A stretch of DNA of 64,000 nucleotides, taken from positions 290,509 to 354,508 of the forward strand of contig JAKLFA010000003.1 in NCBI GenBank assembly GCA_022711395.1, given 5' to 3'. Position 1 is the stretch's first letter. The number at the start of each line of letters is the position of its first letter. Positions 14,488 through 63,700 of this stretch are shown piece by piece. The notes below the pieces were generated by a model, which worked only from the letters and a program-made list of their open reading frames with translations, was not told the origin of the DNA and did not search any database. A program made the position numbers and the translations under genes. The DNA comes from Candidatus Omnitrophota bacterium. GTDB lineage: Bacteria > Omnitrophota > Gorgyraeia > Zapsychrales > JANLHA01.

Positions 14488-14521
14488 CCACAGCATCCAA
14501 GGACGTCAGGGGGCTGGAGTC

Positions 14522-14911: not shown

Positions 14912-14915
14912 GCTT

Positions 14916-15263: not shown

Positions 15264-15274
15264 AGGAAAAGGCT

Positions 15275-15589: not shown

Positions 15590-15594
15590 GGCGC

Positions 15595-17172: not shown

Positions 17173-17182
17173 GAAGACGGTT

Positions 17183-17440: not shown

Positions 17441-17464
17441 AGGACCGACCATAAAGGAATAAGC

Positions 17465-21889: not shown

Positions 21890-21930
21890 AAAATTAAAAG
21901 ACCGGCCTTGTCATTACAGGCGGAGTTGTT

Positions 21931-22308: not shown

Positions 22309-22341
22309 GGCAGGGTTCGACTTCAGGGGGAAAGTCAAGTC

Positions 22342-23199: not shown

Positions 23200-23217
23200 G
23201 AATCAAAAAGGAGCGGT

Positions 23218-24622: not shown

Positions 24623-24705
24623 TACAGAACCTTCCGGCTAGCAAACTAACGTACAATCTGGACATAAAAAAGACCCTTTTTATGGACGACAGACTGGACA
24701 TAAAT

Positions 24706-39700: not shown

Positions 39701-42700
39701 GGGCGTTCGGGGCGGCATTGCTTTATAATGCGGTTCTTTCTCCAATTGTTAAAGGAGTTTCCGCTCGATATACTCGCGCCACACAGAATTGGAGCACGAC
39801 CACTCAGACCATGGTGGGCGGCGGCCTTACAGTCAGCGGTGTGGCCATGCACGTGTTGGGCACTCAATGGAAAGCCAGATTGGAATCAGAATATGAACTT
39901 CTTAAAGCGGAAGAAGTCGCTTTAGCAAAAATAAAGAATAGGGCCCCGGATTTTAGTAAGATCCCCAAAAAGGGAGTTTTTGCAAATATTCTGGCTAACA
40001 GCGGATTGCTTGTTCAAAGCGTCGGAACATCGATTCTATTGAAACGCCTTCATCCAAATACTTGGACAAAAGATTTTAAATCATACACAAATCGGCAAGG
40101 GACGTTTTTTGTTGGCGGAGAGACATCATTGACAGCAAGAGTAACAGACCGGCTTTTTGTTCGGCCAGGAGCGTTTTTAACCGGCACATCACTCGGGGTT
40201 CTTTCCGCTGCAAGCGCGGTCTACGGAAGCAAGAAGCTGGTGGTGGATCACGTGATAAGCGCTTTTCAGGCTCGTCAGAATAATGAAGCAGAGGGAGGGT
40301 TTTTGAGTCATTTTGCCGCAAACTATCTTGAGAAAAGCACGCCATATCTTTTAAGAGGAAGAGAGTATTCAATAAATAAAGCAGTAGATTTAGTGGCCAT
40401 GGCAAAAGCTTTGAAAGTTCTTGATAAGGATGCTACGTTCGATGAAAAACAAACGATCAAAGATAAAACATATTCAAAGATGACGAACGAAGCCCTTAAG
40501 GAAGAGGCAAAGGCATTAGGCATGTCTGAAACAGAAGTAGATAAAAAATTGCAAGCCAATGATCGGGATGCGATTGTATGGGCTGTCATTAAGGGTAAAG
40601 TGGACCGGGCGATGGAATCGTATAAGGTTGCAGGAAAAGATAATGAATACAGCTTTAACGGGGAACTTTTCAGCAAAAATCGAGATGAAAATTATGAGCG
40701 CAGGGTCGGCGGATACGGGACAGATTTACCAATTTATTTGCTTGAAGGGTTGATGGTCGCGGCGACGGTCAAAGGCATAAAGGAATATCGAAGTAAATTT
40801 GCTGAGTTAAAGAGAAATAATGATTCAGTTAAGGGTGTTTCCAAAGGGCTCGATGACTATTTTGCGGAATCAGGAAAACTCAGACAGGCGACTGATAAGT
40901 TTGGTCAAGAACACGCTTTTGGGACTGCGGCGGCATGGGCTGGCGCTGGCGGCGTTCTTTGGGGAGGCGGCGAATTGTTGGAGAGGGCAGGGCAGGGACA
41001 AAAGAATCAGACTATGCAGGAATGGGGGAGGGCGATTCAGGTTCTGGGAAAGACCGGAGTTGCTATTGGAGGTGCGGTTGCTTTGGGCGGTTTTGGGGAT
41101 AGGATTTTACAATCGTCCAAATTAAGCTTTGCTGGAAAAATGAACAGCGGGGCCATAATGGTTGGAAAGATGACAGCAGAAACGGCGAGCAATTTAGCTT
41201 TTGTTATGGCGCCTCTTTCAGGTGTTTTGGAAGGAGTTTCCTGGGCGGCCAACAAGGCGGTTCCTTTGGCTGGATCTGATATGGAAAAGAACTTCTTGAA
41301 ATATACGGTTGCCGGATTCTGGGATGACACGCAGGTCTTGGCTAAGGACGGAAAAACCTGGATCGACAGAGGTGCAGTGAAATATCAGGGAGCCACATCG
41401 ATTTTTGGTGTTATGGGCCGTGCGTATTCATCGGGCCTGTTCGGATATGATGTGGCGACGGGAGAACTGAAAGTCGCGTCTTTGAGCGATATTCCGACCA
41501 CACCGCAAAAATTGCTTCCGCTTCCTGAGAGCATGGGCGGATCCCCCACGGAAGAATATAAAGGCCTTCAAGGACAAATGATCGGATTTTCTGCCGGATT
41601 GACAGCATTGCGATGGATGACACCGGTATTAAATAATATCAAATATGCTGATTTTGGACGCAGATTCCAAGCCATGAATCACTCGTTTGATAAAACGTTT
41701 GATATTGATCTGTTTAAGTCAAATTCAAAAGTAGGAAAGATGTTTGAAAGGTTCCCGCTTCATCCGTCACGCATGATCAGCGGCAGCATCGAGGAAATCG
41801 GCGAGCAGTTCGCCCAGATCGGCCTTCAGATGACGCCGGTGGGCTATGTGGGGCCGATCTTAAGGCAGTTCGGGGTTTCTCCGACGGCAGCAAGAAGCTT
41901 TTCAGAACAGTTCAATGAGATCGTTCAGGAGATCGTTTTAAGCGGAAGCAAGATCGGTGTTAAGAATTCACGGTATGCTAATCAGCAGGTCCTGCAGTTT
42001 TTATCGAACAATGCCGGACGGTTCTCCGGAAGCCAGGGCCTTGAGAACCTTAAGGCGGGCCTGCGGGACGCGGCCAGCGCCGACCAGCTGGGAGATATCC
42101 GGGCCGATGAAGTGGACTATGTGATCGAGAATTATGAAGAGATCGGGTTCGTGGATTCTTACGGCGTCACCATGCCGGCGAGAATGGTCCTTGCCGCCAC
42201 TAACGGGATCGGCGCGGATGCCAGAGGATATGGCGCGGAACAGGCCAGGCAGGCGCTTGCGAACTTCAAGGCTTTGATCACGCAGGATATTGAACTTCAG
42301 ATCGACGAGCAGAATCGATCCGTTGAGCAGGTGGCAAATGTGTTGGAGGCGCAGGCGCAGCAGAAAGGGCAGTCCTTTAACCGTCAAGAATTTTTAGCGT
42401 CTGCCAGATCGAGCGGACGGCTTATAACATCTGAGAAAAGGGCAAAGATCCTGGAAAGCTACACAAAGTCGCTGGAGGCTTTAGAAAAGAAAGATGATTT
42501 GACTGTTTTGGATGTGGCCCAGAAAATGGATGAGCTGAAGGGTTCATCCGCAAATCTTCAGCAATTCTTTACTTTAGCGGCGGACCGGGGAGGGTTTGAC
42601 GCGTCCTCGCTTCAAGGCGTGACGTATGGCGAAGTTGCGGCGTTTTTGCATGAGGGCGGATTTAGAGGAACGCAGTTCGCGGGGGTGACCCAGAGCGATA

Positions 42701-45700
42701 TGCGACAGCAGCTGTTTGGCCAGGCAGGAGATGTGACAGGTGCGACGATCTTCCGCCATGGCGATCTGGGCGCGGGCGGCCAGCAGCAATTATACGCCAT
42801 GCTCAGAGGCGGCACGGGCATGGTTGCGGCCCATGATGTGGAAATGGGAGACGAGATCATCATTGAATCCATGGCGCATCAGCCGGTTTCAGCGGACGCT
42901 TTTGGAGGGACACAGCCTCAGGCGCCTCCTTCAGCCACGCCAGCGGCCAGCGCGTCTTCTGCTTCACCGACTTTAAATACGACAACACCGTCTTCATCAC
43001 CAACACCGCTTGATCCTTCTGCACCGACACCGGGCACAAACGCATCCGTAACGCCTTCTACACCGACAACTCCTTCTGTTTCACCGGCTCCTGCCACAGC
43101 GCAGGCTCCGGCTCCGACTTCCGCAAGCGCGGCAGCAGAGGCCGTGGCTAAACTTGTAGAGCGCAAGCCTGGAGATATTGCCCGTGAAAAAACTTTGAGC
43201 AGCCTTTCCATGGGACGCGCTGTTCAGAGGGTCATGAAAAAGGCCAAAGATGGCAAAGTCGAATTGATAGGGTTTTTGAACGCCACGGCGCAGGCGGTTG
43301 AGATCGACGTTGGCTCCGGAGAAAAAGTTCAGCTGAAGAGCGGAGAATTTTTAAGAGCGAAAGACGCGGCGGTCTTTGGCTATGACGCTTCACGGCTGGC
43401 CGGCCAGACCGATAAAGCGCGCGTGAAGAGCTTCGGCTTTGATGAGGCTAAACCGGTCGCCTTGTTTGAGCAGGAAGTGGAGACTCCGGGTGTTACACAG
43501 ATCAATCCGATGACCGGTAAACAGGAAGTCGTCAGCCGGGATAAACTCCGCACAGTCCGCCGAGAGGTCATGACCGATGCCGCGACCGGCAAGAGATTTA
43601 TTGAACGCAAGATCGCTGATGTTGAAATGACGGTCGGTGTCGAGCAGGCGCCTTTAGCGAATGTTCCGCAGATCGAAGTCAGGTCCACGCAGGAAGTGAC
43701 CGTGGAAGGCGATAAGGTCGTTGTTTCTCCCCGGAAGATGACCAATACGATCCATATTGTGCAGCCTGCCGCCAGCGAAGAAGGAGTTGCTCCGGCAGCG
43801 ATCGATCCGCAGGTCCAGGCGTTAGATGGCGCGCGGGTCGAGGGCAACGTGGTGTATTCCGCTTCCAATAATACACCGGTCGCGCTGATCCATGACGGTT
43901 ACAGGTCCATGCAGTTCGTTGATGCCACGGACGCGGGTTACCGTATCAAGGGCGGCGATCTGTTCGCTGAAGCGGTGGTGCAGCGTTTAGGGCTGTCCCG
44001 GCATTTACCGTCTCAGGACGCCGAAGATGCCCCTGACATCATTATTCCAAAAGCTGAATTTGAGAACGCCCTTGGGCGCAACCGCGAGCTTTCTCAGGCT
44101 GACACACGGATTTTAGGAAACGTTGTTTATCGTAATGAAGCCGGAGAGATCCATACGGATTTTGTCGACCCGACAGGACGAAAATTTGTTGTTTTGAGAG
44201 GGAGCGATGGCGCTTCCTATATTATTGAGCGTGATGAAAGTGTCGGTGCGTATCGCGTGGCCGCCAACAATACGGAAGCCAGGATCCTTTTGCGCCGTTC
44301 CGGGATCAAGACCCGTTCAGAGGCGGGACAGGATATCCTGATCTCTGACGCGCAGATGGACCAGGCGCTGTTAGGTAACGGCAAGTTCCATATGGCGGCG
44401 GAGATCAACAGCCGTTTACGAAACAAACAATCTCAGGACCCGGCGGCTGATGCTCAGAAGCTGGCGCAGTTGACCACGGAATTGATCTCATATTATCATC
44501 CTAACGCGACCGTTACGCCAAGCGTGGAAAAGGGAACGTTAGTTCATACGTATAGCGTTCCTGATGGATCAGGCGGGCATAAGACATTCAGGTTCCTGCC
44601 GACGCTGGAAGCGGAAAAAGGAAAATCGTCCGAGCACTATCGCGAATCAGAGCGCGTGGACACAGGGTTCCAGGCGCTGGTGGCGGAGTTGACGCCGTTT
44701 AAGCCGACGGAAGGCGTTGGCGTTGTGGGCCATGAAGGCAGGCACGTTTTTGATTTCCGCATGAGAGTGCAAGGCGGCAGGCGATTGGGCGGCAGCGCGA
44801 TGATCACCGGAGCCGTGGCCCTTCCGATCCGCAAAGGCTTTGTCAGCAGCGGAAAACGCAATGATCTTTCCGATGTTCAGCACACAAACATTTATTTATC
44901 CTCAGTCCAGGGCGCGCAGAAAGCGACCGAGTTGGGCGAAGTCCGGGCCTACCGTTCACAGCTTTTAGCCCAGGTCGGCCAGTTCCTGGAGAGCGCCGAT
45001 ATTGAGGATCATGAGCTGGCCCAGGAGCAGGCTAAAGATATGCTGTATTTTATGAAGCTTGCCCGAAACATTTCTTATAAAGCGGAATTTGGTTATCGGC
45101 AGGCGTTGGGCATTATTCGAGGAGGCCAGTTAGGACAGGATTTTGCCATTACAGCAGACCCCTTGAACGCGCAGGGTTCCATTGTTGTTGTAACATACAA
45201 AGATGCCAGCGGCCAGGTCAGAAAGATCCAGCAGCCGATCGATCCCCGGGCAAGGGACCGGATCAGCGCGAAATATGCCGCTCAAGGCATTACAAAGACA
45301 GACGATGAGGTCACAAAAGAAGCGGTCATTGAGATCTTTGAGAGCACGGTCCAGGAAGAGCAGGCCCAATCGGCCCGTATCGAGCAGGCGATCGTATTGT
45401 TGGATCAGGTGGGAAGAGACGCCTCTCAGTTCAATCCGTTAGCGTTCCGGGTGGCCTTTAAGGGTTACAGCGCGACATCGAGAGGCGGGAACACGCGAGA
45501 GCATTTAGCCCGCGTTTTTGACCAGGCGGTCGATAGAGAAAGAAATTTTGCCGGGATCGGCAATGAAGGGATTGCTTCAGATATTCAGGCCCGCCGTGTG
45601 TTGGCGGAGATCACGTCGGATTCTGTTCGCGTTGACGGAGGAAGCTCGGAGTTCACGAGATTGACAGGAAGAGCGGCGGATTCGAATATGATCTTGGAAT

Positions 45701-48700
45701 ACAACGCGCAGACCGGCCGAGGCGTGATCTACGAAAAAGAAGGGCAGAAGGTCATTGCTGACGCTCCGGTCTTAGGGAAAGACGCCAGCGGAAAAACGAT
45801 CGTGGTCGAGCGGAAAGATCAGGTCAAGAAAACGGGCGGTAAGATTTTTGCTTTTGTTTCCGTCGGCTCCAGCGGCTCGCCGAAACAGATCCAGGACGTT
45901 CGCGCCAAGATCGATTTTGACAGCACGGCCAAGATCGAGGTCGTGAAGGCCCAGCAGCCGGCAACACCGGCCGCACCGGCAGGAACCAGCCCGGCGATCC
46001 TGGTGAGCGCTCCGGCTGCTTCCGCGTCGACCCCGGTTCCGGCTGTGTTGACAGCGCAGGCGGCCCTGTCACAGAACACAGAATCTTATAGCGCTGATAT
46101 GGCGAGAGCCACGCCTGTTGAATTTGCAAAATATACATTGGGCCGTCAGGCCAGCAAAGGCAGCACAACAGCGCAGAAAATTTTGGCGGGCGAGATCCCG
46201 CTTCAATTAAGCGGAACAAGCGCGATCGTTCCGGCTGGATCAGATGCGGCAGAGACTCAGCCGACACCGCGCGCGGCGATCAATGCCGCATTCAGAGACA
46301 GCAAGCCGGTGAACGCCGAACTTTTGGCCGCCTATAACGCAAAGTCTGAGCGTCCGATCAGCGTTCCTCAAAATTATGTCCAGCAGGGTGAATTTTTGGT
46401 TCCGTCCTCTGGCGCCGTTTCTTCATCGACCAGCGCGGCAGTCCTTTCAACACCGGCGACTGAGGCCGCACTTCCGGCATTGGCCACGCCGCCGGATGTC
46501 GGCACGGCCGCACCGGTCGGCACATTGCCTGTTGCGCCTGTTCTGACGCCGGTGGCCGTTACAGGGATGCCGTTGGCGGCGGACCTTGACGCGATGAAGA
46601 CAGCGGATAAATTAGCGCGCGCGCATATTGACAATATTATTGCCGACAAACCGGGCTCGGTTGAGCCGGCCGGCACATCTGCAGTCGATAGACAACCACA
46701 ACCACGCGTGTCCCAGGGTTCGAGATATTCCTCCGGGCAAGGGGAAGTAACCGGGGCACGCACTGTCGATCAAGCGAAGGTCCTGGACGCGGCGATGAGC
46801 GCGGTCAAGCCTGATTCCAATCAGGTGATCGCGACCCGACGCGCGGATGGGACGATCGTTTCCATTATAAATCCGAACACGAAAACAGTTGAGATCGCCG
46901 GCGTTGCCTTGCAGCCCGGCCAGGAAGCGGTCATGGCCCAGGAACCGCAGACGCAAGAATACAAGGCCATCAAGGTAGAACGAAGGCAGAGCGAAGGACA
47001 GACACAGACGGTCGTGAGCGAACCGGTCACGATCGGGGCCATTCAATTAGAGCGCGGCGATATCGTTGAATACGCCAAGACCGGGGAGGTCCGGATCCTG
47101 GACAAGGCCAAGCCTCAGATGGTGAAGGCGGAAGTCGCAGGCCAGGTCCGCAGTGATATTGAACCGGACGCGGTCAAGCAGGTTGAGGTTCAGAAGACCT
47201 TCGGTGATCTGAAAGTGGTCAAGGCTGATGTTGCGGTCGCGACGGGAGAATCTAAAACTTTGTATGTGCAGCCGACTGAAACCGTTCAAAAAGTTTTCCC
47301 GGACCGTAAAGCGGACGAAAGCGGAAATGTCCGTTTGAGCGAGCAGGAAATAAAAACAGTCTTCAGCCTGGAAAATACAGGTGTCACTAATATAGAGAAG
47401 ACCCGCCGTGATCTGAATCAGGCGGTTGTGGCGAAAGCGGAAGGACGCGGAGAGGTTAAGACGCTTACCGCAGCGCCGAAAGTTTATCAGCAGGCTGTTG
47501 AGGCGGCCCGTCAGGACCTGCAGGGCCAGTTGATGATCGCTCAGGCTAAGGCCCAGGACAGTAAAGGGGAGGACGAGAGGGCCCGGTTTGAAACGCAGGC
47601 CCGCCAGATCCAGAGCGAACTGGATCTTTTACGTGACGAGAATGTGGTTGTCCTCGATACTCCGCAGACACAAGTCCAGACATACAGAACAGAAGCTCAA
47701 GCTGAACAATTAAAACCTGAACAGGCTGTTGCCGTTGAGCGCGTCTTGAATGAGCGCGTGGAAGGCGGTTTTGTTGATAACACAGGCCGCGTCGTTGTAT
47801 TTGCTGATACAGCGGAACGCAATTTCGATTATGCTGTCAAAACAGAGCAGGCGAATTTGATTCAGGACAGCGTGAAGGCGCGCGTGGCCGAAACAGTTAA
47901 ACATGAAGTCGCGGCCGCGGCGAATCAATACAGCACGGATGCGGCCAATATCGAAGCCGCACGGACACGCATCGCGGATTTAGGTCTTCCGACGCAGGCA
48001 AGCTTGACCGGACGTGAGGGGGACAAGACGGAGGTCATGGATGCCTCCAGCGTAACGGCGATGTTAAGCGGCCAGAAACATGAAGTTCGTCCGTTTGACC
48101 GTCGACGGGAGGTCGCGCCGCGGAATTGGGAGGTCGTCTTCCCCGAAACAGTTTTTAAGGCCCAAAACATCAGCTTCCAGGAAGAAAAACTGATAAGCGC
48201 TTCCCGCGCCCGTGAAAGTTTCGTTCATGGATTTTTATTAAATCAGCCCCAGCTGGAAGTTGAGAGCGCGATCAGCAGAGTTCTTAAGAAACCGGTCAAT
48301 CTTGACGATGTTAGCGATAGGATCACGTTAAGTTATTTTGATGAAGGAACGAATAAAGACGTCTTTAAGGTCACCATGACCGCTCAAAACGGAGAGCAAT
48401 TTACATTTAAGCTCGCGCATAAGCAGCCGAAAAAGGGTGGCGATATCTCGCCGAGAGAAACGGTCAATCTTTCTGCCGTTTCAGATGTTTCCGGAGCGGT
48501 TCCCGGTTTTGGCGGGCGCTATGAATACAATGGCCGGGCATTTTATATTGAGGAATTCATTGAAGGAAAGACCGTTCGCCAGATCAACCAGCAGGGCGGT
48601 CTTACTCACGCGATCCGTGAAAAGTCGGTCAAAACGATCCTGGAAGTTTCTAAAACGCTCCATGATCTGGGAGAGGCCGAAGATATGCCGAAGGATATCC

Positions 48701-51700
48701 ATACCGGCAACGTCATGATCCGGGATCGGGACGGCTCCGCTGTAATGGTGGATATCGGTAATAATTATGTTCCGGTTGGACAGGGGGTCCAGAACCTGGT
48801 CCGGTTCTACGGTTATTTCGGTGAGAACAAGGACAAGGGAAGCAATGAATTCATTTATCAGGCCCTTTTGGATGCCTATGGCCGGGAAGATGGTTTGAGA
48901 TATTTGCAGAGCAATGTTGATCACATCAAGGCGGCCATGGCCTATGATCAAAAGACCGGCCGTGAAGCGGGCGTAACGTCACCCAAGAAAAAGCAGATCA
49001 GAGAGCAAAGGGATGAGCCGGCTCTCAGGACGGAAGATTCTCTGCAGGTCGTTCAGGAAATGGAAGATTTTATCAGACGCGTGTCCAGCAGCCCGTCATC
49101 GGATCTCGTAAGGGGCACGAACGCCGCGGTCATTGCTCCGGCCGTCACATATAAAGTTTCGCCGCCGCAGATGGATAGGCCTGTTCTGGAAAAGACCTTT
49201 GTCAGCCCGCAATTCGTCCATGACCTGAAGGTCCTGGGAGTCCGTGATGAAAATATTTCAAAGGTCGAGATCGGGCAAGGCGTAGGCGGACGGGAAAAGA
49301 CATTTTATCCGGTCACAGCGGGAGATCAAAAGGTCGCCGTTGTCGTGATCGGCGGTGGTCAGGAGAATGTGGACCGCAGTTATGAATTCCAGAAATTGGT
49401 CAGTCAAAAATTGCTTGGTGTGACGCAGACTCCCGTGAGCCTTCAGAAATATCCGGGCGGCGTCGGGGTGAAGGTTGAAGAGTTGATTCCCGGGCCCAGC
49501 CTTGAAATTATTTCCCGCAGGCTTTATGAGCGCGCCGCAAAGCCGGAAGTGGATGAGGCGACACGCGGAAAGATGATCGCCACGGCGCAAGCCCTGACGC
49601 GAAAGAGCGTGATGCGCTATGTCAGGCTTTGGGACCAGTTCGGCATGACGGTCGACACAGATCCAAGTAATGTGAAGTTCAAGGCATCAAGCGAGAAGAG
49701 ATTCGGGATGCCGGTGATCGTTGATCTGGACGCTCCGCAGGAATTTGATCCCAGCATGCCGGAAGAATTCACGAGATCTTCAAAAACAGCGTCGGAACTT
49801 ATCGAATCTATAGGCGATCCCTTCGGTAACGGCACAGTGAGCTATGACGCCGTCATGGATGAATATGTGGCAAAAGCCGTCAGACAGGGCAAAACGGTCG
49901 AGGCAGGAAAGCAGGAAGGCGTCCGGGTATTAAGAGAAGCGCTGGCGGAGTTCAAAGCGAAGGCCGCTCCTACCGTTGGAATGAATTTCACGCAGATCTA
50001 CACGGACCAGCTGACATCATATATTGATGGAGATGGCCTCAAGAATTATGAATATGTCGATCATCGCATTGAGAGGATGAATTTACCGGTCATGTCCGAG
50101 ACGGAAGCGGTCAGGACCGCCGCCCGTGATCAGCTGGAGATGATCAAGACCAGACAGACGCTTGCCAGCGCCGGCACGAATTCCGCGGTTCTTTCCGAAG
50201 CACCACGGTCTGCGTTAGCCGCTGCGGTGGATCTTAAGACCGTTCTGCCGGTGAACGCGGAGACCCGCCGGCCGGAACTGAAGGTCGTTTCTTCAGATAA
50301 GAATTATGTGATCGTTGCTTCTGAGCCCAAAGAATCGGTCGTTCCGGGCAGGATGCAGAGCCATTTCAATGTTTATGCGACGGACGCTCAGGGCAAAGTC
50401 GAGATGTCCAATGGTGAGCCGCGCGTGATCGGTGATTTTAAACTTTCTTCTTCGATGCAGAACGGCCGTCCAGTCGTTGAGATCAATGAGGTGGCGATCC
50501 CCAGAGCGCAGGACAGAGGCCAGGGGATCTACGGCGCGTTTGTTGACCAGCTCAAGACAACAGTCCCTGCTGGCGCTGAGATCAAGATCACGGATGTCCG
50601 TCATGCCCAGACGTTGGCGGATTTTGCCGGCGCGGTTTCCACAGAACTTAAAGCCCGCGGAGACGTGGCCGGTTTGAAGGCTGTTAAATTCATGGCCCTC
50701 CGTTCAGAGCTGCAGCAGATCAATGATGACTTTGAACAGGGCAAGATAAGTCTTTTGGAATACACCATGGCGGTTGAAGCCCCGCGGAAAGCGCTCGTTC
50801 CGCTTTTGCATCAGTATGATCAGATCAGCGAATTGGATCAAAGCCTTCCGTCGCTGACTGTCATGGCCAGGAAGACAGATTTCGGCAAACGCCATCAGGG
50901 TCTTTTTGATGTGGAGACGGTTTCCTTCACGATGCCACGCAATGATGGAGATATTCTTCTTCATATTTCGGGCGCGGCGAAGGGAACGGCTTCTCTCGCT
51001 CAAACCGGTACTAACGCTGCGGTGCTTTCTTCGGGATTAGGCAGGACACTCGCCAAGGCCGTTCTTCCGGTTTCCCTCCTTTTTGCGGGAGCTTCGTTCG
51101 ATACGGCGGAAGCGGTGACAGATAGAACAGCGGCCGCTTATGCCGGAAATAACGCGAGATTCGGCGTCGGTTCTTCTGAGATCGTCAAGGCCAGGGCTGA
51201 AATGGACCGTGGGCTTGATGAGATCTTGAATATTGTTCAGAAACGCAATGGCGGAAACCTTATTCCCGGTGGAGTGAACGCTCCGGTCTTATCTGAGATC
51301 TTATCGAAGGCCGTTAAGCCGGGAGAGGCTCCGCGGTTCGAGACGGTTTCTTCCGCGATCAGAAATGAATTGACCTCCCGTTATCAGAAGTTCGATTCCG
51401 GAAAGATGTCTCCTGCGGAGGTCGCCGAACTCGAGCAGCTCGAACAGGATGTGGCTGTCTTTACAACGCGCCTTGTGACCGAAAGCTCTCAATATGACGC
51501 GACGGGCAGGGGCGAGGAATATATGGCCTTGCGTAACATTGTTTATGGATGGCCAACTGTTGATGGAAATATAGCGCGCCGATATGTCTGTGAAGGTTGC
51601 GCGGCAATGAACACGCTGATCGGAGAGAATGAGTTCGGGCTGAGAGAATTCCGCAAACTGAATGTCCAGATGGATGCCAAAGGAATAGTCTTCGGCATTG

Positions 51701-54700
51701 ATGGGGAGGCCGGCCACTCTAATAATTATTTGCGCACGGCCAGCGGAAAGACGGTCCTGCCTGTTGATCAGGGCGTGTTCGGAAAAGATGCGGATCATCT
51801 AAAAGTAGATGTTTGGAATGACCAGGGCGAACACCGTGTCGTTCAGATCTCAGATCTTTCCAAGCCCGAACTTAAAGGGTTCCGTGGCGAAAGCGCCAAT
51901 GAAATTAAAGCCAGGGACGAGGCTGAATTACGGTTAAAGACGTTGACCGATCAGAACAATCTTTCAGCGCGGCTTTCGAACGGACGATCGATGGAGCAGT
52001 TGAGCCAGGTCCGTAGAGAAGTCCAGATGATCGAATCTTCTCCCGAGCTTATGAAGGCTATTGCCCGCCATCCTCATCTTCAGAAAAATTTTGACGGATT
52101 AAAGAAGGGCGTGACGGGCAATATTAAGATTACGACTTACAATGAGGCTGTGGAGCAGTTCAATGGATTGAGCCGTCAGCTCAACGGAGTCGGAACGCTT
52201 TTTGAAAATAAGGATTATAAAGCAGCGGCAGGCCAATATGAAAAGACTGCCACGGATATCAAGAAGGCCATTGAAACGCTCAAAGCGAACGGATTTGAGC
52301 AGTTACAACAGGCGTCTTCTGACGGCCAGATCGTTCGTGGAGGATCGCTGATCTCCGGCCTTGAAAAAATGCTCAAGGTCGCGGAGGACAACGCCGCCGC
52401 GGCCCGCCACAATGCCGGAATCGGGACTGGCCTCACATCAAGAACGCCGTCATCCGTCGTTGCGACCGGCAGCCGCACGGAAGCGCTAAAGGTCAACGGG
52501 CTTATTTCACGGTTCAATGAGGCCAGCCAAGCCAAGAATATTTCTGAGCTCAAGCAGCTCTTGTCCGAGGTTGAAACGCTTTCTGGCACAGTGAACGACA
52601 AAGCAATGTCAGAGGCGCTGGGTGACATTAAGACAAAGGCCGGTCAGAACATTACCGTTCTTCAGTTCAATGACCTTGCGGCGCGTTTTAATGTTTACGC
52701 TAATCAAAGAGGCCAGGGGGCTGTCAAAGAATTAGAGAAGATCCAGGCCGACGCAGAAGAGGCTTTAAAGACCGCTCCGCAAACAAGCCCCGTAAGGACC
52801 AAGCTGGACGATATGATCCGTCAGACACGCCAGATCATTGAAAGAAGGAGATCCGGCGCTTCTGTTGATCCGCAGCAAGCCTCTCCGTTGAAGGAAGCGG
52901 AAGGGCAATTGGCTTCTGTGAACACCGTGACGCCTTTGATCGAGGCGACTGCGGAACTTTCGCCTTTGCCCTATGAAACGGTCACAACATACAGCGTCGA
53001 CCACGGGGTTGTGGTCGCGCGGGGAACGCCATGGATGGACACGCTGGCAGGACAGGCATCAGATGCTGATCGTGCCGGCCGCAATTATGAGAACGGCTCT
53101 GCCCAGGCATTGGGCCGCCCGGCGCCTCAAACCAACGCCGCGGTCCTCGCCCAGGAAACCATAAAGATCAATTACCGTTATCCCAAGTCAATATCGGCAG
53201 GCTTGGGCAGGGCTTCGAATTTTGAAGGAAAAGCGGAGATCTCTCGCAAAGCGCATCAGGCCAACAGCGGCAAGGGGGATTTCAGGCAAGTTCATGTTAT
53301 TGCTTCCGATGACGCGGATCCCGCGGCCCAGGCCGAGAAGATGGTTTATGAAAGACAGGCGCGGAAGGATCAAACGCCGGTTTATATTTTTGATGCTCAA
53401 GACTCTCAGTCTCCGCTGAAGGCAGTGGAGATCACGGATAAGGGACAGATCAGCTACCGCAAAGTTCAGCCAAGTGAGATCGAGACGGGTACGGTTGTTG
53501 TCGCCAATCCTCGCTTGAATACCGCCGCGGCTTTCAGCCCGGCTTCCGAGACGGCGCGCAACTTGGTCAAAAAAGGGAACGTTATCGTTGATCCGGACGT
53601 CTTTTCAGTGGAACATCTGGATGGCCAGGCAGCGCCGGAAACTTCTGTGATCGGACTATCGGCAGCTCAGACCACTAAAGTCCATGCGGCAAGCATTCCT
53701 GCGGTTCAGGCCAAGGCCATGAAAAGCGTGCGGATTGTTCTTGGCGTTCAGGACGGGGTCGTTCTGTCTCGCGAAGCTTTTGTTGATCCGCGCATCAGGC
53801 AATATTCTCCCAAAGAACAGCAGAACTTGAATGACGCGATCTTTGTTTTTGCTCAGCAAGGAACGTTTGATTACGTGCAGATCGATGATACGGATCCGAG
53901 CAGTATGCGGACAGAGATCATCCGCACGGCGGACGGCATGAACATTTTAGTGATCGGCGCAGGATATTCTAGAACAGAGATGCGCACGTTGGTCGAAAAT
54001 ATTGGTGATGAAGCAGCTCAAGATAGCGGCTGGGCGGCGTTGGCTGTCAAGACGGCGTCGAACTGGTTGACAAAGATCAGACCATCTGTGGTCTTAAGTG
54101 ACAAGACCGCGGGAGATATTATGGTTGGCCGTAAGAATTTGACTCCTGGTCAGGCTCCGATCATCTCGGCTCAAGCGTCCGCGGCGCTCGTCGGGCCCAA
54201 GAGCGGAAAGATCCCGAGCTGGAGCGAGGCTGTGTCGAGCTTAGCAGCGGAGCAGAAAGCCGGTGTTCAGGGAATCAATGTGGCGTCGGGATTAAAGGCT
54301 TCAACCTCTTCAACACAGGTTAATAATGCCGTTCTTTCATCCGGAAATAGCGGCAACGAAGACGGCATGGATGCTGATCAGTGGGTCGCTTTGATGCAGG
54401 CGCAGTCAGGGATATCGGATACCGAGATCGGGGACGTGTCTGTTGTGGAAGGATTTATTCCCAGCATGCATGATGGCGAAGGTTCTCTGGAAGAAAATTC
54501 CCGAGAAGGCGAATATTACCGGATGACCAGAACAGGCGCTGGATTTAAGGTTTCAGAGATCAGACCGGCGAATGATTTTAAGGCAGTGGATGAGGCCAGC
54601 GATATTGTTTTGTTCGTCCGCAAGGACCGGCCGGAGGTCATCGCGAAATATCATTTAAGGACCGCGTCGGGAAAAGAAAAGCCTGAAGCAGAGATCTCAA

Positions 54701-57700
54701 GGGCGGTCAAGACCGTGTTCGAAAGTGAGCAGTGGAAGAACCGCCAGCCTCAAAGCGTCAGGCAGGCGCCCGCTTCTGAGAACAGAGGGGCCAATGCTGC
54801 TGTCGTGAAGGAGCCTTCAGATATTTTCTTGGGTGGAGTTCCGACGAGAGGGGAAACTGTTCTGGGATTGATCGGCACGGTCTCTTCTGAAACCCAGCCT
54901 GTCGCAGGAGCGGAGGACAGCGCTCCCGTTCAGAAACATGTGATCAATTTCTTCTCTTCCAACGAAGGAAAAGATAGTTCGGCAGGCGCCGCACGGAACT
55001 ATCCTTTGGAAACTCCGATCACAGACACGCTGCAGAGCGAGATCCGGGACCTTGAACATGAATTTGATCAGGCGCAGGTTTCCGCTCAACCAGCCGAAGT
55101 TCAGGAAACGGCTTATCGTAAGCTTGTGGCCGCCAAGGCACTGCTTTTACGTGAATATGAAACGCGCCTGTTGAACCAGGTCGCAAAGGCGCGTAATGAT
55201 GATGCTCTGCAGAATGCCACAAATCCGCTTGAGCATGATATTCGTATTAATGGAAAGACAGTCCTAACACTTAAAAATTCAGAAGGGATTCTCAGAGGCG
55301 GCAGTTGGTATGACCAGCTGGCAAAACAGGCCCAGGATCCCGAGGTTTTGGATGTCTTGGATGTGGCTAAGAATTTGGATCGGCAGGCGGATCATTTATC
55401 GCATTTTGACGGGCAAGGAATGTCAGTATCAGCTATTAGAGGAGAGATCTCTTCTCTGGCCGGACAATTGAATTGGCTGAAAGTCAGGCTTTCTGCATCC
55501 GATCGTTCAGACAGGGCTGTTGCTCGCGCTCAGCGTAGTGTGCGCCAGCAGACACCGCGAACAACAACTCAGGCCGTTTCGGCATTACAGCGGCCGTCCA
55601 AGGTCGGTTCGGTGATCGTTGGAATCGCGACCAGCACCAAGAACCCGATGGATACGGAAGCATGGCGTCCGTTCTTGGAAGGAAAGATCAAGGCCGGAGA
55701 CCAGGCCGCGATCGCTGAATATGTGGCGCTCTTCCTGTCGGGCGACGCGAACTGGGTTGAGTTTAGAAGGCTTTTGGAGGCGGGAGCGATCGAAACCGGC
55801 GAAATTTGGGCCCCGGTCTTAGAACTGGTCTACGCGAAAGAAGCGGAGCTGGCCGCTCAAGGAGCTGTTAATGAAACAGAAGATGCGAATGCCGCTGTTC
55901 TTGGAGGATCATTCTGGGTTCGCGGAGCGCAGTCGCTGTTAGTGGCCGGAATGCTCGCTCAGGGCATTTCAGGATTTAATGCCGGAGCGGCAGAGGCTAT
56001 TGCTGATTCAGTGAAGCAGGAGATGGCCGCGGACGCCCGCTTAAGAGACGAATTGCATCGAGCGATGGCTGAATTTGACAGGATCGAGAAAAAATACACG
56101 CTTAAGCGCGAATTCAAGCCTGGCTTGCACATGATCGGAGATTTTGATGACATCCGTCCGACGGTGATCTTGATCCATGGCGGGTTCTCCAGGCCGGACG
56201 CTTTTGAGCGCTTCGCGCCGTATTTCAGAGAGAAATTCAATATCGTTATCTTTGCGCATGATTCCGCGGAGCGCTTGACTCGCACAGGCGAGCTTTTCAG
56301 GGCGGATTATGAACGGTTGTTGAAGGGGACATCTTCCAAGAAGATCGTTGTGACCCATTCATTCGGCAGCACGGCGTTCATGAGGGCGATGCTTGACGCG
56401 AGTCCGGAATTTAAGGCGGAACTCAAGACCGCCAAGGTCTTTATGCTGTCACCGGCGTTCTTCGGTTCGGCGCGCGTTGGCATGGGCGGCAGCTGGTTCG
56501 TCCAGGGCCAACTGTGGCTGGGATCATTGGGCGGCGCGTTCGATTTTCTTGAAGCAACTCGACGACAAGGACAATATCATGATCCAGATGGCAAAACGAC
56601 CGCGGAATTATATAAGCGGTACCAGGAATTTAAAGCCCTGTTCAATGATGAGGTTGAAGTTATTGCTTTGACCAATGATTCTCATGCGCCGAAACGGCAA
56701 GAGAGTGTTTTAGGGCAGCGTTATCAGCAGATCGTTGTTGAGGGCGGCGCGCTTTTGCCGGCTGAAACGGATGTCGGGCATTCTGAGATCTTGCGCCGCA
56801 GAGATGTTGTTGAAACGATCATTAATAAAGTTTCAGGAGGCGCTTCAACGGAGACAAACCCGGCCGTGCTTTCACGTGATTTTGAATGGCCGGCCCTTCC
56901 GCAGAATGAAAGCCAGTTGCGCTCACAACTTAAGGAATCTTTTGCTAGAAGCTGGAATCCTGTCAGAGGAACGCCTAGAGATGCGTTAAGGATCTATCGT
57001 GTGAACGGACGATTCTTTGTGAAGGCGCCTTTGGCCGCGCATTTGATCTTAGGAAAAGAGCTGGCATTGAACGCCTTTGGTCGCCATTTTATACCGACGA
57101 CGGCGTTGGTCGCCTCTGTTGATTCCTTAAAGTATGGAGTGGTGGATCAATACGCGGCGAACGATCCGGGAGCGCCCGTGGTTTATGTTCAACCGGTCGT
57201 TCAGCCGTTCGTGGATGTTGTGCAGGATGAATTTGGGTTCCAGCACGCGGTCGCCGGCCAGGGTATTTTGAATGCTGAACCTGCCCAATCGATTGCGCGC
57301 ATTGATTTTTATTTCGAGATCCTGGAAGACATGCTTAAAGTCGGATTGTCGAACGCGGACGCGACTATTGCCCAGGTTGGCGTTGCTGAAAACAATAGAA
57401 CGTATTTCTTTGATATTGAGCGGTTCCGCGAGGTTAAACCGCAACTGGGTGATGCGCAGGATGTGCAGGTCAACACGTTGTTGGCCATTGATGCACGGAA
57501 TAGAGAATTGTTGGCGGAAGCGGGTGTTGGTAAAGAGATTTTGAGCCACTATGACCTCAGGTCAAAGGCATTCTTCAAGCAAGACACGCTTGATAAGCTG
57601 TGGCAAGCTGAGATGAACTTACGCCAGCCGGTAAGCAGCTTGTTTGATTATGCGAAAGATGTGGCATCACGGTTCACGCCGTCATTAACAAAAGAAGAGT

Positions 57701-60700
57701 TTAAGCAAAACGTGGCCTTGCCTGAATTAGGGGAAGCAGTAAACGCATCCGCCATGCGCGGAAAAGCTGCGCCTGTGGCAGGGGATTCAGCGTTGACGAA
57801 TTCAGCCGTTCTGCCGGGAGCAGATGACAGTGCGCTGCCGGAGCTTCCTCAACCGGATATTAATCCAGCGGTCCTTCCGGATACGTCAACACCGTTGCCG
57901 ATCCAGCTTAATCCCGGCATGTTGCCGGTCTATATATTAGGGAAGGCGGATACAAATGTTCCTGATCCGATAGGACAAGGTTCTGAACGAGATTCTAAAC
58001 AGTCTCCGGTTGTTCCTGTCAGTGGAAGTCAATTACCGCTTCCTCTTATACCGGCTGATGGCGGAACTCCTGGACCCGGCACAGGCACAGGATCAAAGGC
58101 AAATTCTACCGCATTTGTGGTGTTAGCCCGTTCAATCTTGCCTGCGTCTAAGCAAGAAGTGCGAGCAGCGCCTAATAATTTGGATCAAACTCAAGGAGAT
58201 TTTGAGATCACAGATATCCGAATGGCCAGTCGCAAGAACTGGACTGGTACGGGCTTGAGTCCAACGGCATGGGTCTCTGCCGACCACTCCACAGTGGTTC
58301 AGGCAGAGGGAGCAGTAGAGTGGATAGGACTTGGAGTAGGAACAGTTGTAGAAGGTGTGGTATTTGACAATGTGGCTAACTTGTTGAGCAACACAGGCTT
58401 GAGTAGAGTGGCGCTTAACGAGGGAGAAGCAGATGCGTGGTCTGTGCGCCTTGGCGCGAACTTCACGCAAGAAGTAGCAGGATCAGTTGTAGAGGTAGAA
58501 GCAGCAGTAGAAGGTGTGACTGATGGATCGAACTCGGCTGTCTTAGGTGGCGTAACGACTGATAAGGGAGAAACAGAAGCACGGTCTGTGCGCTACGGCG
58601 CAGAAAACGTGCAACGTACTGGAATAGTAATAAGCAGCAGAAGTAGCCGTAGAGGTAATCGTTCTTTGAAGGGTCATGATACTGAAGCGCGCGGCATTCT
58701 GGTTGCCGCTATTCAGCCTTGGGCTCTGCTTGAGGCCGGAGAAGGCATTCTGGATGTGGTAAGCGGCTTAGGTACCAAGATCCTGGCTAGTGTAGTTGCA
58801 GTAGGAAGTAAACCTGTTGTAACGGGTGTCAAACAGGGTTCTCAGAGTGCGGGTTCTAGAGATAGAACTGAGCATTCGAGTCCGCTGGCGATGCCTGAGG
58901 TTCTTGGGGTGCGTATTGACAGCTCATATAGTGTCAGCCGTAGATCCAGGAATCAAAATGCCGGACGTTCGAACAGCAAAGCCTTTGGCCGCGCTGTGAA
59001 TCGTTTGGCCAGAACCATTAGAGGTATTATTGGAACAGTTGTAAGAAGTAGACGTAATCGCTCTGTGGAACACAACAGTCGTGGGTCGGATAGTTCTGCT
59101 GAAGGTGAATCCGCTGATTCTGATGCGGATGCTGATGCAGAAGATTCACGAAGTGTAAGAACAATCAGTGGAAGTTATGATGTAGAAGGAAGTCGTTCTG
59201 TCATCAGTTCAGTAAGTGCGGATCAATCCGAAAGATTGGTCCAAAATGCAGTTCAGGGAGTGCGAGAACTGCAGAATGTAAGCGCCGGATCCAATGCGGC
59301 TGTAGTCGCGGAAGGTCAGGTGAATTCTGCTGATGCTGATGATCAAGGTGTGAGAAGTGTTGGAACTAAGGATGTAGAAGGAAATCGTTCTGTCATCAGT
59401 TCAGTAAGTGCGGATCAATCCGAAAGATTGGTCCAAAATGCAGTTCAGGGAGTGCGAGAACTGCAGAATATGACCGCAGGATCTGATCGTGCGGTTTCTG
59501 CTATTACTGATGATCATGGAGTTGAAGGTAATCGCTTGCTGAATGCAGGCGCTGTATATAGTGTAGGAACCTCACAGCTCGAAAGAGCTGATTCTGATAG
59601 TCCTGAGTTGCGCGAAGAAGAAAGAGCGGCTCAGGCTCAAGACGTTTCTACCACAAGTATTCCGGCTGCGACAACAACCGGAACAGGCTTCGATGGAAAT
59701 GCGAAGAGAAGCCAGTTCTGGGCATCTGTTCGTATGGCCGGGTTCAAGACAGAAGCACGCATCATCCTGACCAGGATGACAGGTGCTTTGAGTACGTTTA
59801 TCCTCGCAATACTCAAAGGCGCTCAATCCATCCGTGCGCCGAACTTCGTTAATTTAACAGCGTCTATTAACTTTATGAAGAGCCTGATCAAGGGCGGTCT
59901 TTCTATTGTCCGGACCGCGTATGATCAGGCTTCTTCATTTATCAAAGGAGGGTCATCATGGTACTCGTTAACACACAACCAGATGTCGAATTCAAGTATT
60001 TCCTTGAAGTCCCTAAGTCACGCTGCACGTTCTGCTCAGGGAGAGACAGAACAACCGGTAAGACCAAGCTTTACCTTGTCTTCCATGAACACCAACGCGT
60101 CTACACTCGCAACGGGCTCAGAGGAACCTGGGAAGAGCTCGAATCAGGAACAAGCAGACAGCTTAGAAACATCCTCAACGATGCCTACACAGACATCAGC
60201 ATCCCGCGCTACAGCTCGAACAAGTACCAGTCGCTTATCAATTAGAGATCATGTGTATTCAACCGGGCTATGGCTGCTGTTGGGGATTGTTCTTTCTGCC
60301 TATATGTCCGGGATGCATATTTTAGTCATTGTAGCGATCGCGTCTGTTTGGTTAGGAATCTCAGCCAGGATCTATCAAGGAACATCCTTAAGCCAGAACA
60401 AAGGCAAAGGGCTCTTAACTCGTATTGTTGAGAATACGGTTTTAAAGAACACCATTTTGTGGTTCATGATCTTCTTCTATGGATTTGCCGGAAACGCCAT
60501 GGGCGCTTCCATGAAAGCCGAAGATCGTGATGCTGGATACAAAGCTCCAAACGTGGTCAATGTGGAGAATTGGACCGGTCACCAGAGCGGCATGTCGTTG
60601 TCTGGCACCACATTATGGATGGGCGATCGCGCGAATGATCAAGGAATTTTAAGGTTAGCGCATGCGATGGCTCAACAGAACCGCGGGCCGGCCAAGGTTG

Positions 60701-63700
60701 TGGCGGCTGCTGACATGACCGGTGACGGCAATAACAATCCGCCAGCCCAGCCTGATGCAGAAGACACCAAACCGGCCAAGGCCCAAGATCCGGCTCCGGC
60801 TAAAGACACTAAGAAGCCGGTTGAGCCCAGCAAAGCTCCCGTGGCGCCGATTGCCACGATCGATGATGAGACGTTAGGAAAGGCCCTCACCAGCGGTATG
60901 CCGCTGCGCTCGGAAGAAATTTTTGCCAACTTCGAGCATCCGTATAATGTCCGGCTTTTCGCCGCGGCTTTAGCCCAGGCTGAAAGCAAAATGCAACATC
61001 AGATGGCCACCGATGACGGCAGCGGCTTGTTCGGCATGAGCGAAGAAGAGTGGTCTCAGGCCGTTCAATATATGCTCAACCATAAGTTGTTGGAACAGCC
61101 GTTGTCTTACGCGCATGTCTTAGACCCGAACGTGGCCGCTGAGGTCGCGATGGCTAAGTTGAACTATCAGTTCGAGCTTCTGAAGAGCAACCATATGGCT
61201 GACGGCAAGTCTCAGGAAGAGGTCCAGAGACTGGCCCTGGCTGCTTACAGGATGGGCATGGATGAAGTTGTCAAAGCCGGTAAAGTCCCAGCCGCGGCCA
61301 AGGCCTTTGTTGACCAGGTGATGGCTGATTATAAGCGTTCTGATGAGATGACACGCAAAGCCTACAACCTGGAAGTTGTTTACAACCTGCCTAAGACCAT
61401 GTCCGCCGCGCCGGTCTTTACGCCGTATACCAATGGCTTGGGCATTGTTGATGCTCTGGAAGGAAAACATGAAGAACATAAAGTCGGTCCGAAAACAGAA
61501 GTGTTGGAAGCCGTAAAGCAGAGCGCTGAAGATGCGGTGACCAGGTCTGTTCCGCAGAACGCGAAAGCGGAAGAAGACAGAACTGATGCAGCTCTTGCGC
61601 AAGAGAAGAAGTCTTCTGAAGATCCGCTTCTGCCGGCCCTTCCAGAAGGAGACGTTTCGCTCGACCCGACCAGCATGGTCCTGCCGCCCAAAGACGCGTT
61701 AGGGACAGAGTTGCCCACGCTTTCGATCGGGGAACCTGTTGAGGGGACAGGGATGTTCCGTCGCGTGCAGGTCAGCATTAAAGCGAAGGGCCTGGAAGAT
61801 GTTCAGGCTACAAAATATGGATATCAATCAGACGAGCATATTGACAGCAATTCTTTGAACGGGATCGGTCATAGCAATAACCGTCTGGTCAAAGATGTGA
61901 GCGTGGCCCTTATGGCGGAAACAGCCAATGCCTTGGGAGTGTCTTCAGGTGATTTGATTGTTATCCGTTTGAAGAATGGGCAAACGCTCCTGGGAAGATA
62001 TGATGACACCATTCCGTCATTGTATAAAGGGCACAGGGTTGACTTCTATACGCCATCGGGAGAGTTGTCTTTTGATGGGCAGAAGGTCGAGTTGTTTAGC
62101 TATAAACAGATCATGAGCGGCCTTTCTGCTGAAGATCAGACAACGATCAAGGCGGAAGCCGGCCTGCTTGCTTCGAAGACGAATGACACACAAGAAGCGG
62201 CCGTGGCCGGCCAGAGCAAGATATTGAGGAACATGAGCACGCAGGTCGAGCTGACGGCCGATCTGAGGGTCGAAACGATCGACGGCAAAAAGACCCTGGT
62301 CCTTGACCGCAGCTATTATGAATTGGGCGAGAACGAGTTGGCGAAAGTGTATCTGCCGCTGATGGAGAAATTGGGCGTTGACCGCATCGTGATCAAGGGC
62401 AAACAGCCGGTCGCTTATTTCATGGAAGACGGCAAACTGAACACCAAGCGCTTTATGCAGACAGCGGCTCACGGCCAGACCTACCGCGAAAGCGGATATT
62501 ACGGCACGGCGGTCGATACCAAGAGCTGGATCGTGACGGTTCAGGTTCCGTTCGCCTCGCCGGTCCGCACGCCGGTTGCCGGTAACGTGGCCGCGGTCGC
62601 CTTGACAGCGGACGGCTGGAAAGTCACGGTCCAGGCCGAGAACAAGATTGAGACGATCTTCACGCACCTGGGCGAAACAGCGGTCAAGGCGGGCGAAACA
62701 TTGGCAGCGGGCGATCTGATCGGTCTGGCGGGCGAATTCAAGAGCAAGGATGCGAAAGAATATCATTTCCGTATCCAGGTCAAAGAAGACGGCAAGGAGG
62801 TCAACCTTTTGAAGAAAAATGACGGCGCCTCAACGATCGAAGGCGTTCGTCAGGCCTTTGTGAAGAATTTCAACCTCGATCAGGCGGAAGTCGATTTCTA
62901 TACCGGCAAGCTCGAAACGCATGAAGAGCGTAAGACAGAAGCGGACAGCGCCATCGCCGATAACAATGCCCATGTTGAAAAAGGCAAGCTCGAGATCGAG
63001 AAGCAAAAAATCGCTGTTGAGCAGGCCAACGATCCGGAACAGATCCGCCGCAGAGAACAGAGCGCGATCGGCTTCTACTTGTTCGGCAAGCGCGATTGGG
63101 ATGTGGCGAATCCTTATGGCAACGCGAACGCCAGCCGCAGCATGACCGACGCCTTATACGGCACGCCGGCCAATGAGGGCGGTTTCTGGTTCGGGGTCGG
63201 GTTCAATTCGATCTATTCAACGGGCGTCGGCGGTCCGGTCCTCACCCTGGGCGACAACAGCTTCTCACTCGATATTTCCGGCGGCGTGAACAATCAATTC
63301 TTAGGCACATGGGGACAGCTGGCTGGCGATGTGTTTGGGGCTGAAGATGTTCTTTCTAAGGGTCCGGCTGCTACAGCGTTGTTTGGCATTTCATTAACCG
63401 ATAATCTTATTAAGTTGCGCAATACATATGAGGATATTTCACACCGCGCCAATCAGTATGGCTATACTGAATTTTTTGATCAGGGCTGGATCTTCAACAA
63501 ACCTTGGAAGTTGGCGCTGGATACATCCAGGGTTGTTCCCAATCCGCGCCCGATCAACGGTGAATGGGTCAGCGATCCGTATCATCACGCGGACTTTACG
63601 CCCGCGCGCATATTAGAGTATCCCGGCAAGCTGGTCAAAGGCCTGCTGACACTGGATGCCTTTACATCTGATTTCTGGAGCAATAATCCGCTTTATAAGC

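Follow-up and report, generated by a model that had tools for sequence, protein, structure and literature searches.

We analysed a 64,000-nucleotide (nt) stretch of DNA (the window) from a Candidatus Omnitrophota metagenome-assembled genome (MAG), as given by the annotation of protein fragments 100% identical to parts of the window, and report on a short peptide motif that recurs in the giant protein encoded there. The window holds gyrA and housekeeping genes, then a Tad-type pilus locus, and then the giant open reading frame (ORF), a single stop-free frame 1 that covers nt 24586-63999 (13,138 codons), is still open at the window end and likely starts at the ATG at 24682. Its N-terminus has orthologues at 65 loci in GTDB Omnitrophota contigs, the majority of which continue for at least 3,700 amino acids (aa); that of locus L003, on contig JBBRHV010000001.1, is 73% identical to it.

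24682..63999, + strand: giant ORF, >13,100 aa, encoding a C39-type Candidatus Omnitrophota giant protein (stop-free frame and orthologous N-termini)

The Omnitrophota are marked by giant ORFs, 10,000 to >100,000 aa in length, and the literature asks whether their products are cleaved. With its length above 10,000 aa and a Peptidase_C39 domain that lies at the N-terminus, close to a signal or anchor helix, the protein of the window belongs to the C39-type Omnitrophota giants, a group described in two reports (10.64898/2026.06.07.730766, which has 176 complete genomes, and 10.1101/2023.11.21.568195). West-Roberts et al. proposed that C39 or S8 domains cleave the Omnitrophota giants, stated that the cleavage points are unknown, and pointed out that the missing cleavage points block structure prediction and functional interpretation (10.1101/2023.11.21.568195). 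A text search of both reports for a motif or for cleavage found no such motif and no cleavage point, and a text search of Seymour et al. found nothing relevant on motifs. The motif described here is the first concrete candidate for the sites at which the giants might be cut or docked.

A recurring peptide and its enrichment

About 13 instances of the motif had been claimed in a preliminary description of this DNA. All 13 listed peptides are present in frame 1 of the giant ORF, with 8-mer starts no more than 9 nt from the approximate positions given, and they follow the consensus (G)(T/S)-N-(A/S/P)-A-V-(L/V/I)-(S/A/G/P). Copies 1 to 7 below were placed by the frame-1 translation and a position-specific scoring matrix (PSSM) and copies 8 to 13 by translation; for two of these, the AlphaFold2 (AF2) predicted local distance difference test score (pLDDT) is given as well.

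49114..49137, + strand: motif copy 1, GTNAAVIA (aa 8177-8184)
50173..50196, + strand: motif copy 2, GTNSAVLS
51007..51030, + strand: motif copy 3, GTNAAVLS
51271..51294, + strand: motif copy 4, GVNAPVLS
53128..53151, + strand: motif copy 5, QTNAAVLA
54316..54339, + strand: motif copy 6, QVNNAVLS
54787..54810, + strand: motif copy 7, GANAAVVK
55882..55905, + strand: motif copy 8, DANAAVLG (pLDDT ~31)
56851..56874, + strand: motif copy 9, ETNPAVLS (pLDDT <50 over model residues 333-353)
57793..57816, + strand: motif copy 10, LTNSAVLP
57856..57879, + strand: motif copy 11, DINPAVLP
57904..57927, + strand: weak third tandem copy, QLNPGMLP (LNPGMLP at nt 57910), missed in the preliminary description
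58525..58548, + strand: motif copy 12, GSNSAVLG
59287..59310, + strand: motif copy 13, GSNAAVVA, inside the first unit of a 66-aa tandem repeat (translation and self-BLAST)

Twelve copies of the core pattern are confined to aa 8179-11570. The quasi-periodicity of about 1 kb that had been read into them is not borne out, and true periodicity was rejected, as the gaps range from 21 to 619 aa with a mean of ~283 aa, which is domain-sized. The statement that the first 24 kb of the gene hold no copy was slightly wrong, since a core match, NYNPAVLW, lies at nt 24895-24918. The residue at -2 is Gly in 7 of the 13 copies, that at -1 is Thr (6), Val, Ala or Ser (2 each) or Ile (1) and never Gly, and the residue at the Leu position is followed by Ser, Ala, Gly or Pro in 11/13. 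The 66-aa tandem repeat (aa 11492-11666; window 59059-59583) is the sole internal repeat of the protein by BLAST, and the motif, intact in its first unit, has decayed to GSDRAVSA in the second.

When the pattern N[ASP][AP]V[LVI] was counted against shuffled controls, as had been proposed with the preliminary description, it stood far above what composition would give: 13 matches in the whole protein against 0.32 in shuffles (shuffle maximum 3), and 12 within aa 8001-11700 against 0.08 expected. Among 120 permutations of the residue classes, the order of the motif came first and the order with positions 2 and 3 swapped came second (10 matches), all others giving at most 3 (median 0). An unbiased count returned NAAV and AVLS as the most frequent 4-mers of the whole protein. 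With the first position left free, x[ASP]A[VI][LVI] matched 17 times and 12/17 had Asn first (0.4 expected), while swapping position 1 to other residue classes brought the counts to chance. In a leave-one-out PSSM the copies scored 12-22 bits, and the rest of the protein stayed at shuffle level. Both the Asp form D.A[VMI][LVI] (1 match in the giant protein of the window against 2.55 expected) and the motif itself in the products of the neighbouring genes of the window (none) gave negative results.

Codons differ between all copies, which rules out a DNA repeat or recombination site, and chunked self-BLAST found no internal homology in the protein beyond the one 66-aa tandem, which rules out that the motif belongs to a hidden repeated domain. 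The flanking modules are unrelated, as had been claimed. Since the copies differ in their codons, stand between unrelated flanks and show an enrichment at position 1 for Asn alone, what is conserved is a short linear motif at the level of the peptide and not of the DNA. An N-glycosylation sequon (N-x-S/T) was ruled out by the Ala found at +2 in 12/13 copies. Type IV and Flp prepilin peptidases cut at a Gly ahead of a hydrophobic transmembrane segment (G/xxxxEY for Flp); such a site was ruled out as well, since the motifs have no EY and no hydrophobic segment after them, the whole protein showing only 5 hydropathy peaks, none of which adjoins a motif.

Look-alikes without the Asn (GTSPAILV, VPAVLT, GTSAIVP, TSAAVLS and VAPVLT) were observed in a low-complexity stretch rich in Ala, Ser, Thr and Pro at 45990-46560 (aa 7135-7320), at a frequency near chance (3 against 1.2 expected); they may be decayed copies or a mere effect of composition.

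Module junctions and related giant proteins

The 10 residues on each side of the motif are rich in Gly, Ser, Thr and Pro and poor in hydrophobic residues, and the observed fraction of Gly, Ser, Thr and Pro was reached in 0/2000 draws of random positions. Pfam finds three matches only in the 13,138 aa, the N-terminal Peptidase_C39, a weak alpha/beta-hydrolase and Peptidase_M23. An exhaustive HMMER search with aa 9900-11099 placed three homologous modules, the limits of which match motif copies. The homologues include P0050 and P0052, giant ORFs of two metagenomes that are cut off by their contigs so that the C-terminal end is present (loci L068 and L069), and P0036, a 5,274-aa Omnitrophota fragment (L071, 3-15824) whose MAG also contains L012, a locus with a C39 N-terminus.

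55450..55884, + strand: conserved module A (aa 10289-10433); its homologues are the C-terminal module of P0050/P0052 and aa 5132-5211 of P0036
56110..56832, + strand: alpha/beta-hydrolase fold (aa 10509-10749), between copies 8 and 9 (weak Pfam Abhydrolase_6, AF2, Foldseek)
56956..57711, + strand: atypical-kinase-like module (aa 10791-11042), between copies 9 and 10, with three homologous modules in P0036

Module A ends at aa 10433, and copy 8 lies at aa 10435. The homology to about 15 hydrolases spans aa 10472-10760, with flanking copies at aa 10435 and 10758, and an AF2 model of aa 10420-10800 shows a confident alpha/beta-hydrolase fold at aa 10509-10749, for which Foldseek returns alpha/beta hydrolases; both flanking copies have a pLDDT below 50, and copy 9 begins 9 residues past the last helix of the fold. 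The kinase-like module is flanked by copies at aa 10758 and 11072, and one of its three P0036 homologues matches Pfam AceK_kinase/ABC1. The AF2 model supports a position of the motif in exposed, low-confidence linkers, short of proof because the alignment depth is poor outside the hydrolase fold.

With the pattern fixed beforehand, P0050 and P0052 contain 4 exact copies in 2,308 aa against ~0.02 expected (QTNAAVLGG, QTNAAVLSS, GTNAAVIAE and QTNAAVLAS), one of which sits 27 aa past a SPASM domain. The loci L068 and L069 are syntenic. Their DNA is 79% identical beginning 6 nt ahead of the Asn codon of the last copy, over a stretch that takes in the C-terminal module and the genes that follow it (HMGL-like and aldolase), and they cannot be aligned upstream of this breakpoint; the motif is therefore the exact junction of a module exchange. 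In P0036 the variant [DN]xA[VMILN]L[SGANT] was observed 13 times against 0.32 expected, with forms of the type D-x-A-(M/N/I)-L: the top unbiased gapped pattern of this protein is D.AML, and Asp comes first in 12/14 matches. These copies cluster at junctions bracketing AceK/ABC1-like kinase modules homologous to the module of the window. The refutation proposed with the preliminary description, by absence of the motif from orthologous giant proteins, did not succeed, the motif recurring in related giant ORFs. Taken together, the sequence comparisons show the motif as a junction signal that delimits independently evolving modules in the C-terminal third of the giant protein, among them the hydrolase, the kinase-like unit and several without an assigned fold.

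Among the 65 orthologues no internal copy was found in the first ~3,700 aa, which is the reach of their contigs, and the first 8,000 aa of the protein of the window are likewise free of internal copies, the N-terminal core match aside. A generalised pattern searched in the N-terminal 3,700 aa of the 65 orthologues gave an unconvincing 27 matches against 17 expected. A k-mer search with aa 8100-9600 matched the source organism only, and two metagenome scans for the C-terminal regions of orthologues brought nothing further.

Several observations accompany these results. Two other short motifs recur at the junctions of P0036, GGAV (4 matches, 0.08 expected) and T-x-A-V-S (4 matches, 0.09 expected), and in P0049 and P0054 D-x-A-M is followed by GGIDL near the C-termini. 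The giant protein of the window has 6 Cys in 13,138 aa, the C39 catalytic Cys included, whereas the related fragments P0050/P0052 hold Cys-rich radical-SAM/SPASM modules and a neighbouring 1,474-aa protein (17465-21889) has 50 Cys (3.4%); this depletion suggests that the giant protein may be exported in an unfolded state or live outside the cell. The GC content at third codon positions (GC3) is a mosaic along the gene (~0.43 over aa 500-5500, ~0.57 over aa 5500-11000, ~0.41 over aa 11000-12000 and ~0.6 beyond), suggesting blocks that may differ in origin or age. In some relatives (L001 10001-22907 and L002 349-3945) the N-terminal C39 unit has an ORF of its own (968-1,198 aa) beside Tad genes, and other large ORFs of 1,943, 738 and 2,265 aa come after it, so that the giant gene may be split or fused differently by lineage, or assembly and frameshift effects may be at work. 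The Tad-type locus of the window, at nt 5763-24099, comprises RcpC/CpaB, a secretin with a C-terminal TonB_C domain, a CpaE-CpaF fusion ATPase and several unannotated genes; the two fusions, secretin with TonB_C and CpaE-like ParA/MinD ATPase with CpaF-like T2SSE ATPase in one ORF, are unusual and lie at 6637-8352 and 8394-10556.

A candidate processing site and its alternatives

The preliminary description had suggested processing by the N-terminal C39-like peptidase, and the features that bear on this are the following.

24826..24891, + strand: hydrophobic helix at the N-terminus, a signal anchor or signal peptide, with the invariant ...PEQISWA at its end (hydropathy peak, AF2 helix 49-70)
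24895..24918, + strand: N-terminal core copy, NYNPAVLW, inside the block FNY(N/D)P(A/S/L)(V/I)(L/I)(W/Y)G (65/65 loci)
24994..25671, + strand: C39-type papain-like cysteine peptidase fold with Cys178 and His263, numbered from the ATG at 24682 (Pfam PF03412, E=2e-9; AF2 pLDDT >90)
62539..62805, + strand: Peptidase M23 domain, 3' of the motif-bearing array (Pfam PF01551, E=2e-9; weak PDB match to ShyA)

The top Foldseek matches of the C39 fold are PCAT1 and LahT150 (target-normalised TM-score ~0.70 to 6mpz), and Cys178 and His263 are invariant in 32 sequences and align to the catalytic residues of LahT150 and PCAT1. No Pfam match to ABC_membrane or ABC_tran was found in the 13,138 aa scanned. 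Directly after the hydrophobic helix, the block F-x-P-(E/D)-Q-x-S-W-A-F-N-Y-(N/D)-P-(A/S/L)-(V/I)-(L/I)-(W/Y)-G is essentially invariant in the 65 loci, with F62, P64, Q66, S68, W69 and A70 invariant across them, and the chance that a random core match would land inside an invariant block of 20 residues is small. The S-W-A end would fit the AxA rule of signal peptidase I. In P0046, a giant without a C39 domain, an N-terminal hydrophobic helix is followed by AQDIAWANPDL, which resembles the PEQISWAFNYNP block; a Q-x-I-x-W-A / N-P signature after the anchor helix may thus be a wider Omnitrophota export or signal-peptidase signature.

We tentatively favour, at somewhat less than an even chance, a role of the motif as a protease-dependent processing site, the giant protein being a polyprotein-like effector array. 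At each linker motif, an endopeptidase specific for this sequence would cut the chain, which would release the modules or make them mobile. The first candidate protease would be the protein's own C39-type domain with its invariant Cys and His, and the alternative enzyme would be a partner protease reading Asn or Asp; the bond cut would be either one at Asn or, in the manner of MARTX, the one past a Leu whose P1' neighbour is small. We infer the cleavage of the motif as well as the bond and the enzyme. Of the three roles suggested in the preliminary description (processing site, sorting signal and docking peptide), all of which would fit the sequence, processing is the most economical because a C39 fold with invariant Cys/His is present in cis, the core recurs beside this fold and MARTX provides a precedent. 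A protease directed at Asx, or a self-cleavage driven by Asx, would also be compatible with the invariant Asn and its exchange for Asp in another lineage. The M23 domain was considered unlikely as the processing enzyme, since M23 enzymes act on peptidoglycan cross-bridges.

A number of results weigh against this explanation. Canonical C39 peptidases cut after Gly-Gly, Gly-Ala or Gly-Ser, which the motif copies do not resemble, and Pro follows Leu in 2 copies and Asn in 2/13 internal copies, which is awkward for either bond. The Omnitrophota giants P0041, P0046 and P0056, which have the homologous hydrolase module, are without any such motif. The N-terminal copy falls below threshold with the 8-mer PSSM, and the conservation of its block may instead reflect a signal-peptidase site. 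The AF2 modelling of motif with peptidase that had been proposed leaves this copy out of the C39 cleft, at an uninformative pLDDT of ~54, and shallow alignments may account in part for the low pLDDT of the motifs. Covariation of block and motif was not seen, in that L012 keeps NYNPMVLW while P0036 of the same MAG uses Asp. The preliminary interpretation is partly supported.

Next in probability, somewhat unlikely but a serious rival, comes a short linear docking motif that is never cleaved: the linker copies would bind one partner, for which a chaperone, a secretion or Tad-pilus component, a surface anchor or a prey-surface receptor are candidates, and the array would be held, exported or displayed as one chain. 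Exposed linkers, conservation at the peptide level and the strict Asn would be explained equally well by docking, and tandem double or triple copies (aa 11072, 11093 and 11108, and the clusters in P0036) would suit avidity better than cleavage. The giant gene also lies directly downstream of the Tad secretin/ATPase/platform locus, here and in relatives, and C39-like domains can bind without cutting, as in HlyB (Foldseek matches 7sgr and 3zua). However, the invariance of the C39 Cys/His pair argues for catalysis, a docking partner would have to co-evolve with a motif that has Asn/Val in one lineage and Asp/Met in another, and the neighbouring gene products lack the motif.

It is less likely that the motif is a passive signature of junctions, a favoured linker or helix N-cap element that lets modules fold independently with no specific reader, and that would persist since recombinants joined anywhere else are lost. 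The breakpoint of homology coincides exactly with the motif, the GC3 profile of the gene is mosaic, and AF2 draws short low-confidence helices starting at the motif, all as such a signature would have it. Generic linkers, in contrast, do not keep a consensus of 5-6 residues with an invariant Asn over 13 codon-divergent copies, and the first 8,000 aa and other giants have many module boundaries and no motif; this explanation is less likely because of both the invariance of Asn and this absence. In addition, the motif has decayed in the younger copy of the tandem repeat and is therefore not needed for the folding of that repeat.

Self-cleavage independent of a protease is quite improbable. A succinimide or anhydride would arise here through attack of Asn (in P0036, of Asp) on the carbonyl of its own backbone, with a break at Asx-X, on the models of FlhB/YscU NPTH and intein C-termini. 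The strict requirement for Asn, the lineage swap being precisely one from Asn to Asp, and the Asn-Pro that the N-terminal block always has and 2 internal copies share would agree with it, but the known Asn-cyclisation needs a folded catalytic environment whereas the motif lies in low-complexity, low-confidence linkers, and the conserved A-V-L-small that follows Asn points to recognition in a binding cleft. Finally, an artefact of chance or composition, a hidden repeated domain or a DNA repeat has next to no probability: although the protein is rich in Ala, Val and Leu and the pattern was defined after being seen, the excess over shuffles, the first rank among permuted orders, the top unbiased 4-mer signal, the replication of the fixed pattern in independent proteins, the varying codons and the lack of internal homology all contradict it. 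A small remainder of probability is reserved for roles outside this list.

Returning to the processing site, a wider and somewhat unlikely statement can be put forward: lineage-specific motifs of the form Asx-x-Ala-hydrophobic-Leu-small could be the missing cleavage points, and the giants could be bacterial polyproteins that a built-in or partner protease cuts into dozens of enzymes, with modules swapped at the same sites. Because the motif is conserved, over-represented, placed in linkers, and found at module boundaries and at a homology breakpoint, it makes the question of giant cleavage testable, through exact peptides to be looked for in metaproteomes and rational cut points for structure prediction, and it supplies substrates for assays of the C39 domain, for example LAQTGTNAAVLSSGLG and GASTETNPAVLSRDFE. 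A docking motif would still tell how the effector array is handled.

Comparison with known systems

The double-glycine leader, amphipathic ahead of its site, has the consensus LSxxELxxIxGG, as opposed to N-x-A-V-L here, and the canonical C39 double-glycine site was rejected for the motif, since Gly is never found at -1 and LGG follows the motif in 2 copies only. The giant protein resembles PCAT/AMS (PCAT1, LahT) in its C39 fold, the conserved catalytic Cys and His and the recognition, here proposed, of a short linear peptide, and differs in having no fused ABC transporter and candidate sites that are internal, present in many copies and not Gly-Gly.

Polymorphic toxins carry junction motifs, VENN in CdiA and PxxxxDPxGL in Rhs. 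As in these, a short peptide marks the exact end of homology and the start of a module (L068/L069) and is associated with cassette exchange. Unlike these, there are many serial junctions in one ORF and not one before a C-terminal toxin, the conserved side in L068/L069 lies downstream, and the variable codons argue against a simple role in recombination homology; the Pfam scans found no PT-VENN, Rhs or immunity-gene signature.

In the LapA/LapG system, a periplasmic cysteine protease releases a giant adhesin at a (T/P)AAG site near its N-terminal anchor. The likeness lies in a giant surface protein, an Ala-Ala-type site near a membrane-proximal N-terminus and a protease of the papain superfamily. 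LapG, however, is a separate C93 (BTLCP) protein that cuts LapA once, whereas the protein of the window has 13 internal copies with another consensus, and no type I secretion system (T1SS) or LapD/LapG genes were seen in the window.

The giant protein works most like MARTX, by analogy and not as a member of that family. In MARTX, a cysteine protease in cis cuts after Leu in unstructured segments between effectors (PMC2900308). Shared with it are a very large, multi-module and presumably secreted protein, an array of unrelated enzyme-like modules and a cysteine protease in the same polypeptide. The position of the motif in linkers is supported here and module boundaries coincide with it; its Leu followed by a small residue would be the counterpart of the processing site. 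The protease, however, is C80 (clan CD) there and C39 (clan CA) here, and it is N-terminal here and ~8,000 aa from the array; no Pfam match to a C80 domain or RTX repeats was found in the part of the giant protein within the window. Export is by a T1SS there, while the neighbouring locus here is Tad-type, and the determinant here is longer and requires Asn. The producer here is presumed to be an epibiont or predator of bacteria or archaea, and activation by inositol hexakisphosphate (InsP6) is therefore not expected. Cleavage here is proposed from sequence.

Viral polyproteins use sites for 3C-like or papain-like proteases, and the resemblance extends to one long ORF, a cysteine protease in cis and a recurring short consensus at module junctions; the difference is that the protein here is cellular, has its sites in one third of its length only and shows no homology to them. 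If cleavage holds true, the Omnitrophota giants would follow a cellular polyprotein strategy comparable to MARTX and to viral polyproteins, built on a different protease fold.

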